Positions 42,236 through 51,292 of a DNA stretch of 64,000 nucleotides are shown here, piece after piece. Under the pieces are notes generated by a model. It had not been told where the DNA came from and did no database searches. It worked only from the letters and a program-made list of their open reading frames with translations. The translations under genes were made by a program, and so were the position numbers. The stretch comes from a phage. How positions within the stretch are numbered: the stretch's first letter is position 1; each line of letters opens with the position of its first letter. The stretch is taken from the sequence record PZ179883.1; one strand, 5' to 3'.

Positions 42236-42272
42236 ATGTATAGTATCAAAGTCCTTGGAGGAAGTAAACACT
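42236..42272 (-). promoter_or_regulatory. Early promoter upstream of denV
   Basis: TTTACT N18 TACTAT; its position supports the denV start at MTRINL. Confidence 0.5.
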
Positions 42273-42552
42273 ATTTTTCTGAAGCGCCTGAAATATATTT
42301 TTCAAGACGTTGTTTCATTAGCGAGCCGTTCTTAGCAATTTCTTCTGGTTTATCGCACATACGCAACAAGGCTTCAAGCTTAACGATATCGCTGGTACGT
42401 TCAAATTTGCGAGTATCTATCTTACTAGCAAGTTCAGAAATACGTGCTAATAGACTTTCAGCTTCAACCAAAGCTGCACCTAGCTTAGTTGCAAATGTGT
42501 CAGTAGCTTCGTTAAGAATAGATTCTGATAAAAATTCACTATATGTTTTCAT
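42271..42552 (-). CDS. Internal protein with capsid-targeting leader (IPII position)
   Basis: Begins [10 protein letters not shown], the conserved Ip leader with L-x-E cleavage site; between denV and e. Confidence 0.55.
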
Positions 42553-43037
42553 ATATACGCTTTCCAAGTTCCTGTTTTAAATGTTGAGATTACGCGTTTC
42601 GCGCGATTAGGTGTCTGACGATACCATTTAGATTGGGCTAGATTTACTGCTGCTTCATCCCAGCGTTTTTGTTGGAGCATACGTAAAGAATTAGTAAATC
42701 CTGCCACGCCGGTTTCTCCCATTTGAAAAACCATATTAATCAATGCACAGCGGCGAACAGCATCAAGAGAATCATAAACTGGTTTTAATTTAGCATTTCT
42801 CAGAATTCCGCGAACAGCAGCATCAACATCCTGATTAAAGAGTTTTTCAGCCTCATCTTTTGTAATTACACCATTGCAATTACGCCCAATAGCTTTATCT
42901 AATTCAGATTTGGCAACACTAAGTGATGGACTTTTAGTAAGCAAATGACCAATGCCAATAGTGTAATAACCTTCTGTGTCTTTATAGATTTTAAGTCTAA
43001 GACCTTCATCTATACGTAACATTTCAAATATATTCAT
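42549..43037 (-). CDS. e: Lysozyme (endolysin) e
   Basis: 162 aa beginning [38 protein letters not shown], near-identical to T4 lysozyme. Confidence 0.97.
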
Positions 43038-43050
43038 AATACCTCCTAAG

Positions 43051-43071
43051 TATTTATAGAAGGTATTTATA
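43051..43071 (-). promoter_or_regulatory. Two tandem late promoters (TATAAATA) upstream of lysozyme e
   Basis: Plus-strand tatttata at about 43051-43058 and 43064-43071; AGGAGG Shine-Dalgarno follows. Confidence 0.65.
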
Positions 43072-43073
43072 AA

Positions 43074-43529
43074 TTAAAAGAGGCTGTTCATTATTCGGTA
43101 AAGTGAAGGGCCCATCACATATTGCCACTGAGTACGAGGAATAAGGGCAAAAGCATCCATCTCTGGAATCATAACACCATCTTTATTTTCAAAATAAGAC
43201 TCGCAATGGCAATTTCTAAACATCTCATGCTCTACTGGAATCGTATAATAAAATAACTGTAAGTCTTTATTACTAGAATATTTAAATACACCTAGGTCTT
43301 CTAGAAGGTCTGGATTATAATTGCTAAAACCAGTCTCTTCTAAACATTCTCTTCGTGCTGCATCTAGTGCGTTTAAATCAGAATTTTCTACACGGCCTTT
43401 TGGAATATCCCAGCGATGTGCCATCATTCCAGGCTTACGAGAACCAGTAACCCGTCCCATGAATAAATCTTTATCTTCTGTCATAAAGATAATACCAGCT
43501 GATAATGTTTTCATTTTAATTTCCTGCAT
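43074..43529 (-). CDS. nudE: Nudix hydrolase NudE
   Basis: 151 aa; Nudix box GRVENSDLNALDAARRECLEETG; position after e. Confidence 0.85.
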   Translation of the reverse strand: MQEIKMKTLSAGIIFMTEDKDLFMGRVTGSRKPGMMAHRWDIPKGRVENSDLNALDAARRECLEETGFSNYNPDLLEDLGVFKYSSNKDLQLFYYTIPVEHEMFRNCHCESYFENKDGVMIPEMDAFALIPRTQWQYVMGPSLYRIMNSLF

Positions 43530-43999
43530 TCAATGATAAAGTTATTTAAATTTTGAGTATATTTCTTTTCATCAAAAATCTTTTGTTGTCTGCGTAGCCG
43601 CCATGGCATTTCGATGAACACACACCATATTCCTGATAGTATTGCTGCTGTCAAAATATTAACAAGTATGATTAAAAGAATCCAATCTCCCGTTCTGCCT
43701 ACTGGACTTTCTCCAAAGAAGCAAAATACAAATGATGTCACAGGAAAACTAATAATGTACCACAGAATCATAATTTTATCTGTGAACCAATCAGCGTTCG
43801 TTAATTTAGCGCGACCATTATGAATACATACGAATTTATCATCTGTTGCAGTAGATGGCTTAACTGGTTGATATCCCATTCTAAACTCCCTAATCAGCAA
43901 ATTTTTCATATCTTCGGAACAGCCATTCCAGTCAACTCTATCAACTGGAATGCCATCATCCCCATCATCTAAATCATACCAGCGAGTTTTTAAAATCAT
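43511..43999 (-). CDS. Membrane protein, member of a 3-gene tandem family
   Basis: 162 aa; transmembrane segments; C-terminus FIIECRKLK. Confidence 0.4.
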   Translation of the reverse strand: MILKTRWYDLDDGDDGIPVDRVDWNGCSEDMKNLLIREFRMGYQPVKPSTATDDKFVCIHNGRAKLTNADWFTDKIMILWYIISFPVTSFVFCFFGESPVGRTGDWILLIILVNILTAAILSGIWCVFIEMPWRLRRQQKIFDEKKYTQNLNNFIIECRKLK

Positions 44000-44358
44000 C
44001 TGATTTTCCTACAATCACTCACAAACTCTTTCATTGATTCATTTTCAATATAAGACATGTAGCTATTATATTCTTTTAATTGTATTTTGTAATCCTTTTT
44101 TCTTTGCCAATTTATTTTAAAATTATCATAATGAAAATATAGAATGATACAAAAGAATGAAAATAATGAAATAATTTTAGTATAGCGAAGTTCACTCCAA
44201 ACTTCTATTATATTTACTGTGCCATCGATGTTTAAAATAAGACAGTCAATTAACAATCCAAAAAGACTACCCGCAAGAGCTGCAGCCAACGCCACAGCAA
44301 AAATTAAAAATGACTCAGGAAGCGAATATTTGACTTTATTTAGTTTTGGCTTTTGCAT
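43996..44358 (-). CDS. Membrane protein, tandem family member
   Basis: 120 aa; C-terminus EFVSDCRKIR. Confidence 0.4.
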   Translation of the reverse strand: MQKPKLNKVKYSLPESFLIFAVALAAALAGSLFGLLIDCLILNIDGTVNIIEVWSELRYTKIISLFSFFCIILYFHYDNFKINWQRKKDYKIQLKEYNSYMSYIENESMKEFVSDCRKIR

Positions 44359-49407: not shown

Positions 49408-50040
49408 TTATTTATTACGTGAAAAAGATTGTTCTATCAATTCTGGACACTTTCGTTCTATCCATTTTCTAGCTTTTTGTGGGCTTATACCTATTATTTT
49501 AGCAGCTTTACTAACCCATCCAAATTTAGAATAATCGATTTTAACTAATTCTTCGTAAATTTCATCAGTTAAAATCTTTTCATTAATATTTACCAGTAAA
49601 TGATATAATTTATTATCATTAGCAATTTTAATGAATCTTTTATAGTTTCCGCCTTTACTTAAACCTAATGAAGTAATTGCAGATGATATAGTAGCCGAAT
49701 TTAATAATGCGTTTAAAATTTCTTCATCACTAACATTATAACGCTTTTTATTATTTTTAATATTTTTACCAGCAAAAGTATCAGTTTGCGAATGGCAATT
49801 TGGACATAATAATCTTAAATTTGATTTAAGATGATTTTTGTTATTTCCATCAATATGGTCTAATTGCAGAACAATATGCTTATTTTGCCATTTTGAAATT
49901 TTACAAATTGCACACTCATATGGAAAAATATTTTCTTTTATTATTTTGTCTTTCAGCTTTCCTGTACTAAAATTTGGATGTTTTCCTTCAAAAATTTCAG
50001 CTAATTTAGTATCCATAATATAATTCCCAATTATTAACAA
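49408..50040 (-). mobile_element. HNH homing endonuclease
   Basis: 210 aa; LQLDHIDGNNKNHLKSNLRLLCPNCHSQTD is an HNH motif with zinc-binding cysteines; helix-turn-helix-like C-terminus; ends 6 nt from tRNA-Leu. Confidence 0.7.
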
Positions 50041-50126
50041 AGGCTCTCTAACAAGAACCCTTGATGATAGAGGGTATTAATCAGTGCGATATGAGTTAAT
50101 AATAACAAATAATTCTTAAAGCATAT

Positions 50127-50414
50127 TTACCATTTATAATAATACATATTTACGATGCATTCAAGACCCAAAGGATTCTTGAAAATATCATATTCAAGAG
50201 GACCTTTTTCTGTTTCAATAAAGAAATCAAAATTTACTGTATTAAATTTACGTTCTTCCTTCACTAATTTAACTTGAGAAGATGAACGGTCAATGTAAAC
50301 CTTTTCAACTTCAAAACATGTTAAAATGCCATAATCATCAATCAAAGCTTTAGCCGCGTCTTGATCATATTTATATCCATTTTCAATGGATGATACTTTC
50401 GCATAAAGAATCAT
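50127..50414 (-). CDS. Hypothetical protein
   Basis: 95 aa ORF. Confidence 0.4.
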   Translation of the reverse strand: MILYAKVSSIENGYKYDQDAAKALIDDYGILTCFEVEKVYIDRSSSQVKLVKEERKFNTVNFDFFIETEKGPLEYDIFKNPLGLECIVNMYYYKW

Positions 50415-50416
50415 TA

Positions 50417-50815
50417 TCAGCCTTCATCAACAATAGTGTGAGTATTAGCATTTACGATTTGCCACCAATCAAAGCGATTAGAATCCATCGGTTTGTTTTC
50501 ATTTTCTTTGATAATGTCACGGAGTTCATCTTCAGAGAATGCTTTAGCAATTAAATCGGTATACCCACCACGGGGATAATAATTATCACCTGCAAACAAA
50601 AGGAAATTTACCTTCCCGGAAGCAACATATGCTTCCTTAGGATACTTGTTTCCTGCGTGGTCAACCACTTCAATATAACGGTAAGGAATATCGGTTCTTT
50701 CAACCCATTGCCATGCCGCCGCAGGGGAATCGAAAGCATCTACACCTAAACGATTATCTTCATCTTTAGACGGATTATTTTCGTAATCCGCATATACATA
50801 ATATTCAACGTTCAT
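50417..50815 (-). CDS. Hypothetical acidic protein
   Basis: 132 aa ORF. Confidence 0.4.
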   Translation of the reverse strand: MNVEYYVYADYENNPSKDEDNRLGVDAFDSPAAAWQWVERTDIPYRYIEVVDHAGNKYPKEAYVASGKVNFLLFAGDNYYPRGGYTDLIAKAFSEDELRDIIKENENKPMDSNRFDWWQIVNANTHTIVDEG

Positions 50816-51000
50816 TATTCACCTTTAGAAATTTTATCCATAACAATAGCAATTAAACCAATTAAAAATGCTACTACAAGTGAAAACACATTTTCTGCTG
50901 TAGTCAATAATCCACATATAAATCCAACAAACATTGAAAAACTAAAAGCGGAAGCAGAAATTGCAATAGCAACATTTCGAATTAATTCACAACGTTTCAT
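50815..51000 (-). CDS. Small membrane protein
   Basis: 61 aa with two hydrophobic helices; own early promoter upstream. Confidence 0.4.
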   Translation of the reverse strand: MKRCELIRNVAIAISASAFSFSMFVGFICGLLTTAENVFSLVVAFLIGLIAIVMDKISKGE

Positions 51001-51024
51001 TTTATTCTCCTCAGTAGTAGATAG

Positions 51025-51060
51025 GGTAATAGTATCACTACCCTATCTAAAAGTAAACTT
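51025..51060 (-). promoter_or_regulatory. T4-type early promoter
   Basis: TTTACT N17 TACTAT; upstream of the small membrane protein. Confidence 0.55.
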
Positions 51061-51292
51061 ATTTTTTACGAAAAATTGATTTATTTTCTGCTGCCCATTT
51101 TTCAATAACTGCAGCAGGACCAGTAACAACAATTTTATCACCGTAATCTTCTGCGGCGAGTTGACCGAAATTATCTAATGCATCACGAAGAACTCCATGA
51201 GGCATTTCACCCATTTTATCTTTCTTGCCAGTGTAAATAAACTCAACTTTTACATCAGCAGTTTCAGCAATAAATTCTTGGTAAGTTTTCAT
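51059..51292 (-). CDS. Internal protein at the IPI locus, divergent from T4 IPI
   Basis: Internal start MKTYQEFIAE (exact T4 leader) followed by sequence unlike T4 IPI as I recall it; adjacent to 57B as ipI is in T4. Confidence 0.6.
   Translation of the reverse strand: MKTYQEFIAETADVKVEFIYTGKKDKMGEMPHGVLRDALDNFGQLAAEDYGDKIVVTGPAAVIEKWAAENKSIFRKK

Follow-up and report, generated by a model that had tools for sequence, protein, structure and literature searches.

Of all phage proteins, the injected internal proteins are those that encounter the defences of the host first. The hypervariability of the ip loci and the idea that internal proteins (Ips) serve as anti-restriction cargo are established (PMC12373910, PMC2839356). 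In Silas et al. 2025 (PMC12373910), where 'the two Ip loci' are mentioned, T4 Ip1, Ip2 and Ip3 each inhibit one GmrSD variant, a different one in each case. No more than two such loci in T-even phages appear in reviews and recent work, and a published statement has it that T-even genomes hold no IP genes at other places (PMC2839356). For packaging, the first 10 residues of IPIII are enough (PMC9026906, a review of Black's work), and such a leader is referred to here as a capsid-targeting sequence (CTS). In mutagenesis of IPIII, residues 4 and 7 mainly governed targeting, while residues 8 and 10 governed processing. The determinants are an aromatic residue at 4, Phe at 7, Leu or Ile at 8 and Glu at 10, and the prohead protease gp21 cleaves after the Glu within L/I-x-E (PMC9026906). 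Here, we analysed four open reading frames (ORFs), named A, B, C and D, that open with such a leader in a phage DNA of 64,000 nucleotides (sequence record PZ179883.1), which we call the window.

We consider it probable that all four ORFs encode packaged, gp21-processed and injected internal proteins of the T4 type, with more confidence for A and D and the least for B. D is already known as Ip6 and A as an annotated internal head protein. The new content is the re-annotation of B and C, which is useful but incremental. The four genes are as follows (a slash marks a predicted cut).

42271-42552, minus strand: gene A, a CTS protein of 93 residues, 'internal head protein' (ORF; PHROG 3499 'internal head protein', E 1e-46)
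46539-47102, minus strand: gene B, a CTS protein of 187 residues, MKTYAEFLTE/A, RB14ORF136 family (ORF; PHROG 2280, E 2e-53, residues 1-181)
47228-47701, minus strand: gene C, a CTS protein of 157 residues, MKSYTQFLNE/AVLNE/A, RB32ORF132c family (ORF; PHROG 2280, E 2e-60, residues 1-157)
51059-51292, minus strand: gene D, a CTS protein of 77 residues, MKTYQEFIAE/T (ORF; PHROG 8111 'internal virion protein', E 1e-52)

Four ORFs carry a T4-type leader

A preliminary description of this DNA had placed four leader-bearing ORFs, starting at 42552, 47102, 47701 and 51292, in three loci. We searched the six frames of the whole 64-kb window with the strict pattern MK[ST]Y.[EQ]F[LIVM].E and with looser ones, and observed that exactly four ORFs open with a T4-type leader, at these positions and all on the minus strand. 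The only further match to the leader pattern was a fragment of 7 codons. The leader DNA of the four genes is itself a detectable repeat family (D1), with 70-73% identity across 37 nt.

The motif is short, and this is the only point in favour of chance matches on spurious ORFs. However, the strict motif was expected only 3.6e-5 times from the six-frame residue frequencies, and there were 0 matches in 200 shuffles. Strong PHROG matches were obtained for all four ORFs, and their conserved homologs run into the hundreds. The PHROG matches and the motif expectation refute a chance origin, to which we give practically no weight.

The three loci were also as described: A is flanked by e and denV, B and C by the e.8 homolog and the rnaC/rnaD-tRNA block, and D by 57B and the trna.4 homolog. 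By its sequence matches, the window phage is a Tequatrovirus. In a megablast of positions 41000-53000 against GenBank phages, 1210 records matched, the top one being Escherichia phage DCP2 (97.8% over 100% of the query) and many of the next ones Tequatrovirus genomes. The gene order on the minus strand is that of T4, running from gene 1 through 57A, 57B, the ipI slot, trna.4-.2 and the tRNA cluster to rnaD/rnaC, e.8-e.2, nudE, e, the ip slot and denV.

When we examined the leaders themselves, all four had, at the level of sequence, the experimentally defined CTS determinants. Tyr4 and Phe7, the targeting determinants, are present in each of them, and the cleavage motif at residues 8-10, as read from sequence only, is LSE in A, LTE in B, LNE in C and IAE in D. 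A second LNE occurs at residues 13-15 in A (SILNE/A) and C (AVLNE/A). This makes a propeptide of 15 residues possible in A and C, in the manner of Ip5 and IPI, where the cut falls at a later TITE site.

The gene at the IPI locus, D, had been described as keeping the exact T4 leader in front of an unrelated-looking body. The body indeed has no kinship with T4 IPI; the leader, however, was misassigned, since MKTYQEFIAE is exactly the leader of T4 IPII and IPIII, while T4 IPI has MKTFKEFTSTTTPVSTITE.

B and C form an insertion at a third locus

The elements around B and C are the following.

47754-48084, minus strand: rnaD and rnaC homologs, ending in the terminator 47754-47777 (T4 alignment and annotation, terminator scan)
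47740-47747, minus strand: exact T4 late-promoter motif TATAAATA, upstream of C and overlapping the cassette junction GGTAT/AAATA (motif scan)
47197-47220, minus strand: terminator hairpin AGCCCCGACCGAAAGGTTGGGGCT, separating C from B and repeating the rnaC terminator in direct orientation with 93% identity (repeat D2, terminator scan)
47141-47148, minus strand: AATAAATA, in which 7/8 positions agree with the T4 late promoter TATAAATA; it starts 46 nt upstream of the B ATG and is suggestive only (motif scan)
46512-46530, minus strand: intrinsic terminator hairpin 3' of B, whose tail CTTTTTGGTAT rejoins the T4 sequence following the rnaC terminator (repeat D2, T4 alignment)

T4 and the window are near-identical through rnaD, rnaC and the rnaC terminator to ...GGGGCTTTTTGGTAT, and the T4 continuation resumes in the window only after the B terminator. 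B and C together make up a 1.25-kb insertion that starts directly after the rnaC terminator, at a site that is empty in T4. The insertion consists of two units, each with a promoter-like motif, a CTS gene and a terminator, and the cassette junctions fall in GCTTTTTGGTAT of the repeated terminators. AATAAATA stands upstream of B at the same distance as TATAAATA upstream of C. The annotators of RB51 had recorded the gene as 'flanked by 34 bp imperfect direct repeat', without calling it an ip. As a statistical argument the motif TATAAATA was rejected, with 10 copies in the window against 9.8 expected.

We also evaluated the position of the family in other phages. In 8 of the 10 IMG/VR loci (those in which both could be scored) and in Klebsiella phage KP1 (Jiaodavirus), the last tRNA was followed on the same strand by a C-family gene, 300-900 nt downstream; of the remaining two loci, one had no tRNA and the other no intact leader-bearing ORF. 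Yersinia phage fHe-Yen9-01 (Tegunavirus) has a B-like ORF, a C-like ORF and a CTS ORF of 52 residues about 1 kb downstream of the last tRNA. Since C-family genes keep their place while the CTS ORFs in the ipI slot change from phage to phage, the third locus is conserved in content and the classical loci are hypervariable.

The 52-residue ORF of fHe-Yen9-01 (L005 2200-2358) starts MKTYIEFINE, lies between tRNA genes and would be unusually small, with about 42 residues in the mature form. An ORF of equal length and position is present in phiR1-RT (L018 4421-4579), where the two were compared by length and place only.

The two recognised, hyperplastic IP loci are 57B-trna.4 and e-denV-vs.8, with early-promoter/stem-loop flanks. 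A and D occupy them, whereas B and C have terminator repeats on either side and are situated in the interval from rnaC to e.8. The two-locus criterion is a feature of the literature description (PMC2839356) and not of the mechanism. Taken by its sequence, the B/C locus contradicts the published absence of IP genes outside the two loci (PMC2839356).

B and C belong to one conserved family

Using tblastn, we found B in 165 phage records and C in 512, with the label 'hypothetical' in every listed record. PHROG 2280, which both proteins match over their full length, carries an unknown-function label, and neither gene appeared under any ip name in the searched records or files. Recognition of B and C would correct hundreds of 'hypothetical protein' annotations.

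The predicted mature B has 177 residues, 19.6 kDa and an isoelectric point (pI) of 9.5, and mature C has about 147 residues and a pI of 9.5. A direct comparison of B with C by BLASTP and hhalign aligned only the leader or a stretch of 20 columns. The two are however bridged by gp154 of Yersinia phage fHe-Yen9-01, which matches B (E 9e-4) and a C-family member (E 1e-12), each over the full length. This bridge, together with their common membership of PHROG 2280, indicates that B and C are distant paralogs. A hidden Markov model (HMM) search of 1.8 billion representatives returned 13 proteins only, the sources checked being T4-like phages, and in this search no homolog of other function, donor or origin was found for the family.

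The distant homologs all open with a CTS-like sequence (MLKFNEFLAE, MINFSDFLNE, MKSFSSFLNE, MKFKEFLAE, MLEYSEFLKE). In an alignment of 11 family members, down to 22% identity, the only invariant columns were M1 and F7, and L8 was nearly invariant. Constraint in the family is thus strongest in the leader, where it falls on targeting and cleavage residues. Within Tequatrovirus B and C are mostly at least 95% conserved, and across genera they are syntenic. Those of Escherichia phage KarlGJung (Bas37) are identical, as is its D.

AlphaFold models of both proteins were helical and two-domain, with a predicted local distance difference test (pLDDT) score of 72.6 for C and a weak 57 for B. In layout the models agree, the leader being followed by a small helical domain, a linker rich in Lys, Pro and Ala, and a long hairpin of helices. 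Linkers of this kind between the two helical domains of family members include KPAPKADPKAA, AKPKPAKAEPKK and KAPPAKAAKPEAK. Foldseek searches with the B and C models gave a best E of 0.5 in PDB, and in BFVD they gave only the family's own members and one protein of Serratia phage PS2, so that the structures offered no lead to a function. PDB sequence searches gave 0 matches, Pfam gave nothing above threshold for A, B, C or D, and with hhalign the alignment of B and C to T4 IPIII was confined to the leader.

B and C are both absent from T4 (by alignment) and from phiR1-RT. In OE5505 (L001 5365-5927 and 6053-6487) the B homolog is annotated as two ORFs, with a frameshift near codon 101, and the C homolog is leaderless, starting MKHLAPKF... 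From these absences and lesions we conclude that B and C are dispensable accessory genes. Phages that share about 97% identity in other respects differ in their Ip content. The split of B and the loss of the C leader in OE5505 could be either gene decay or a sequencing error.

Evidence bearing on B and C as possible head proteins

Protein g140 of Yersinia phage fD1 is near-identical to C, differing at 3 of 157 residues. In purified virions of fD1 analysed with liquid chromatography-tandem mass spectrometry (LC-MS/MS), g140 was scored as particle-associated at the strict threshold, and fD1 Ip4 (g129) was likewise flagged (PMC8309999 Table S3).

A number of observations weigh against taking all four proteins as packaged anti-restriction cargo. 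The same fD1 table also flags DenV, lysozyme, NudE, e.5 and e.6 and is of low specificity (PMC8309999 Table S3); since cytoplasmic enzymes are flagged too, the detection establishes that g140 is expressed, but is weak evidence for a place inside the head. The detection concerns a homolog of C; for B no such data were found, a literature search on virion proteomics of fHe-Yen9-01 brought nothing of use, and the structure model of B is poor (pLDDT 57). Because the count of TATAAATA in the window equals the chance expectation, only its intergenic placement is informative. The conservation and synteny of B and C are unlike the arms-race pattern of the classical loci. No body resembles a characterised anti-restriction protein in sequence or fold (Pfam, PDB, Foldseek), and reproducible inhibition of five more GmrSD systems was not obtained with ip4-10, among them Ip6 (PMC12373910).

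B and C might also be seen as ordinary cytoplasmic accessory proteins, whose CTS-like N-terminus is a relic of recombination with ip genes and no longer serves packaging. All listed public records do call them hypothetical, they lie outside the two recognised IP loci without early-promoter/stem-loop flanks, and the single proteomic detection comes from a low-specificity data set. However, a relic would decay first, and here the leader is the best-conserved part across genera (M1 and F7 invariant, L8 nearly so), with the rest at 22-30% identity. The conserved positions are exactly those needed for targeting and cleavage (PMC9026906), and the basic composition and late-promoter-like motifs suit a head protein. 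We therefore consider a relic leader improbable.

Gene A and the e-denV locus

Two elements flank A.

42549-43037, minus strand: lysozyme gene e (T4-like gene order)
42213-42270, minus strand: T4-early-promoter and stem-loop (GTTTAC ... GATACTATA, flanks TTCCTCCAAG/CTTGGAGGAA), between A and denV; downstream junction of the A cassette (repeat family D5)

A was found at 95% identity or above in 233 phage records, with the RefSeq label internal head protein, and its 90% cluster includes RB69ORF127c. Compared with Ip5 of T2, PP01 and RB51, it showed 48-51% identity over about 84 residues (E 3e-23), although the leader type and the locus differ: Ip5 has the leader MKTFKEFATKTTITE and lies at the ipI locus, whereas A has a leader of the IPII/III type at the e-denV locus. 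Judged by sequence, A is better filed as the RB69ORF127c subfamily, a relative of Ip5. Since the A family also occurs in Mosigvirus (RB69), it may have been exchanged between genera.

The start codon of A, an ATG, shares bases with the stop codon of e (ATGA). The 3' end of e (42549-42620, minus strand), its last ~70 nt, diverges from T4 and KarlGJung, ending ...TWKAYI instead of ...TWDAYKNL, with 162 residues instead of 164. Because of this divergence, the upstream junction of the A cassette apparently lies inside e. The element between A and denV is analogous to the IP-associated PeSL-like elements of PMC2839356. As for the content of the e-denV slot, T4 has ipIII and ipII, KarlGJung has nothing and the window phage has A, while RB51 and fD1 have Ip4 beyond denV.

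Gene D and the ipI locus

The neighbours of D are the following.

51369-51827, minus strand: 57B (T4-like gene order)
51293-51368, minus strand: early-promoter and stem-loop element (GTTTACATAGGGT...GTGATACTATTACCCTATC), between 57B and D, where the cassette is deleted in comparison with KarlGJung and OE5505 (three-way alignment, repeat D7)
51001-51058, minus strand: early-promoter and stem-loop element, 3' of D and upstream of the trna.4 homolog (repeat D7)

The names Ip4-13 are used here as in GenBank records. D matches ip6 of fFiEco06 with 100% identity over its 77 residues, and its identity to ip6/ipVI of VR7 and PST is 78-95%. The family was found in 246 records, and in many of them 100%-identical genes are labelled ip6, ipVI or 'internal (core) protein'. 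By this sequence identity gene D is Ip6, already named in GenBank.

D is the sole cassette at the ipI locus of the window phage. KarlGJung and OE5505 have Ip5 and Ip6 in tandem in this slot, where the window phage has Ip6 only. In a three-way alignment of KarlGJung, OE5505 and the window, two copies of the repeated early-promoter/stem-loop intergenic element were found to bracket the Ip5-cassette difference exactly.

In the IMG/VR loci, the ipI slot holds a different set of small CTS ORFs nearly every time. Those in L011-L015 (positions about 560-1950) are varied, with 69, 74, 87, 90 and 102-103 residues. As several of them have an extended ...E(S)ILNE, as A and C do, the 15-residue leader variant recurs on unrelated bodies.

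Proposed mechanism and function

What was observed are the features of the sequences, their homology and synteny, and the junctions of the cassettes; the packaging, cleavage and injection of A-D, as well as their targets, we infer along the following lines. The N-terminal CTS of ~10 residues would carry each protein into the prohead scaffolding core, and the gp21 protease would then remove the leader after Glu10 (L/I-x-E), with a possible alternative cut after Glu15 at the second xLNE site in A and C. A cut after Glu10 would leave B starting AAKLPSEADLTK, C starting AVLNEASSTEIQAVAK and D starting TADVK. With the later cut C would start ASSTEIQAVAK, and one of the two predicted mature starts of A is ATDTFATK. 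The mature proteins would remain in the head with the DNA and be ejected into the host at infection. The genes may move as self-contained cassettes via recombination in repeated regulatory flanks, these being the early-promoter/stem-loop elements at the two classical loci and the duplicated intrinsic terminators at the third.

By analogy with T4 Ip1, Ip2 and Ip3, the plausible targets of A and D are particular type IV (GmrSD-type) restriction enzymes, which they would inhibit. B and C may act against host defence or, like IPIII, in the core or with the DNA; we give these two compatible roles about the same likelihood. The preliminary description had taken all four genes as candidate anti-restriction cargo with new specificities. 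For B and C this is weakened, since they are well conserved and not hypervariable, and the earlier interpretation as a whole is partly supported.

B and C may be packaged and yet have their main role in the head, as basic core or DNA-associated proteins like IPIII that aid prohead assembly or DNA condensation. The window phage has neither IPII nor IPIII, and mature B (177 residues, 19.6 kDa, pI 9.5) is close to IPIII (183 residues, 20.4 kDa, pI 9.65). T4 IPIII mutants assemble heads at half the rate, give about 40% of the burst and accumulate polyheads (PMC9026906). Further in keeping with such a role, sequence and position are kept across Tequatrovirus, Tegunavirus and Jiaodavirus while the ipI locus varies, and the Lys/Pro/Ala-rich linker between two helical domains is common to family members. 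T4, however, lacks the whole family and is fully viable, phiR1-RT lacks both genes, and in OE5505 B is annotated split and C is leaderless. Moreover, T4 Ip3 itself inhibits a GmrSD system, so that both roles are compatible (PMC12373910). A main role in the head is therefore a possibility that we take seriously without favouring it.

As a tentative and rather doubtful proposal, the B/C family (PHROG 2280) could be a third, ancient class of head-packaged, injected proteins across Tevenvirinae genera, missed because it is absent in T4. From the conserved sequence and position, such proteins would be expected to have a conserved host function or the packaged DNA itself as their target, and not one variable restriction enzyme. 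If this is true, B and C would be a different kind of injected effector from Ip1-3.

The neighbouring tRNA region

Some further observations were made between D and the third locus. The tRNA-His gene (48532-48613, minus strand) differs from those of OE5505 and KarlGJung by a tandem duplication of 6 nt (GATTGT GATTGT) in its anticodon arm, as a result of which ARAGORN reports an 82-nt tRNA with an undefined anticodon. This could be an inactivating mutation or an assembly error.

An ORF of 210 residues with an HNH motif (HIDGNNKNH...CPNCH) lies at 49408-50040 on the minus strand and abuts tRNA-Leu, where T4 and the IMG/VR locus L008 have tRNA-Gln; tRNA-Gln was not found in the window. Its equivalent in KarlGJung is annotated as a putative homing endonuclease, and T4 segB is absent from the window.

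Between tRNA-Arg and the rnaD homolog is an ORF of 116 residues (48085-48435, minus strand) that resembles RB51ncORF141c / RB69ORF150c; T4 has no gene there. The rnaD/rnaC homologs (47754-48084, minus strand), near-identical to T4, matched no Rfam family. In the equivalent region of L014, ARAGORN reports a 'tRNA-Stop(tta)', which reflects the tRNA-like T-arm of rnaC.

Comparison with known internal proteins and their loci

Alignment to the known Ip families, which had been suggested as a check, identified D as Ip6, related A to Ip5 and matched B and C to Ip1-3 in the leader only. Against Ip1, Ip2 and Ip3, all of A-D align by the leader only (BLASTP, hhalign), with no PDB sequence or fold match. 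The gain is incremental, as the CTS leader, the hypervariable cargo and the anti-restriction principle were already known. Within this frame, a third locus with a conserved family would add two candidate injected effectors per phage. The complement of Ip genes is also a plausible determinant of which wild strains can be infected, which bears on Tequatrovirus phage therapy and host-range prediction.

The four proteins share the leader class of T4 IPII and IPIII, D having the identical 10 residues and all four having L/I-x-E. The predicted mature B and C are basic likewise, B is of IPIII size, and A lies at the same e-denV locus. No similarity to IPII or IPIII was seen past the leader by BLASTP and hhalign. 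At the e-denV locus, the window has one gene where T4 has two, and A overlaps the e stop without an early-promoter cassette of its own. B and C lie at another locus than IPII and IPIII, with other flanks.

With T4 IPI and IPI* (inhibitor of the GmrSD of E. coli CT596), D shares the 57B-trna.4 slot and the same repeated early-promoter/stem-loop flanks. Its life cycle of being packaged, cleaved and injected would presumably be the same. The leaders differ, that of IPI (MKTFKEFTSTTTPVSTITE) having 19 residues and that of D being of the 10-residue IPII/III type, and the bodies are unrelated.

Among the Ip5 and Ip6 proteins of T2, T6 and the RB phages, D is identical to genes labelled ip6, while A is Ip5-like in its body with a different locus and leader. 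In comparison with the Ip5/Ip6 tandem of KarlGJung and OE5505, the Ip5 cassette is absent from the ipI locus of the window. The Ip5/Ip6 nomenclature is reportedly that of Repoila et al. 1994, who are also said to have described the plasticity of the ip loci and its link to promoter/stem-loop repeats. Modular shuffling cassettes of the PeSL type are said to be treated by Comeau et al. 2014 as well. The link between ip-locus plasticity and promoter/stem-loop repeats was reported by Arbiol et al. (2010, PMC2839356).

The third locus departs from the PeSL cassettes in its repeat, which is a GC-rich intrinsic terminator followed by a late-promoter-like motif and not an early promoter with a stem-loop. 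Capsid-targeted cargo genes could thus also travel as terminator-bounded cassettes. In other respects the arrangement is that of the PeSL cassettes: single genes lie between repeated regulatory elements, and the indel junctions fall inside the repeats.

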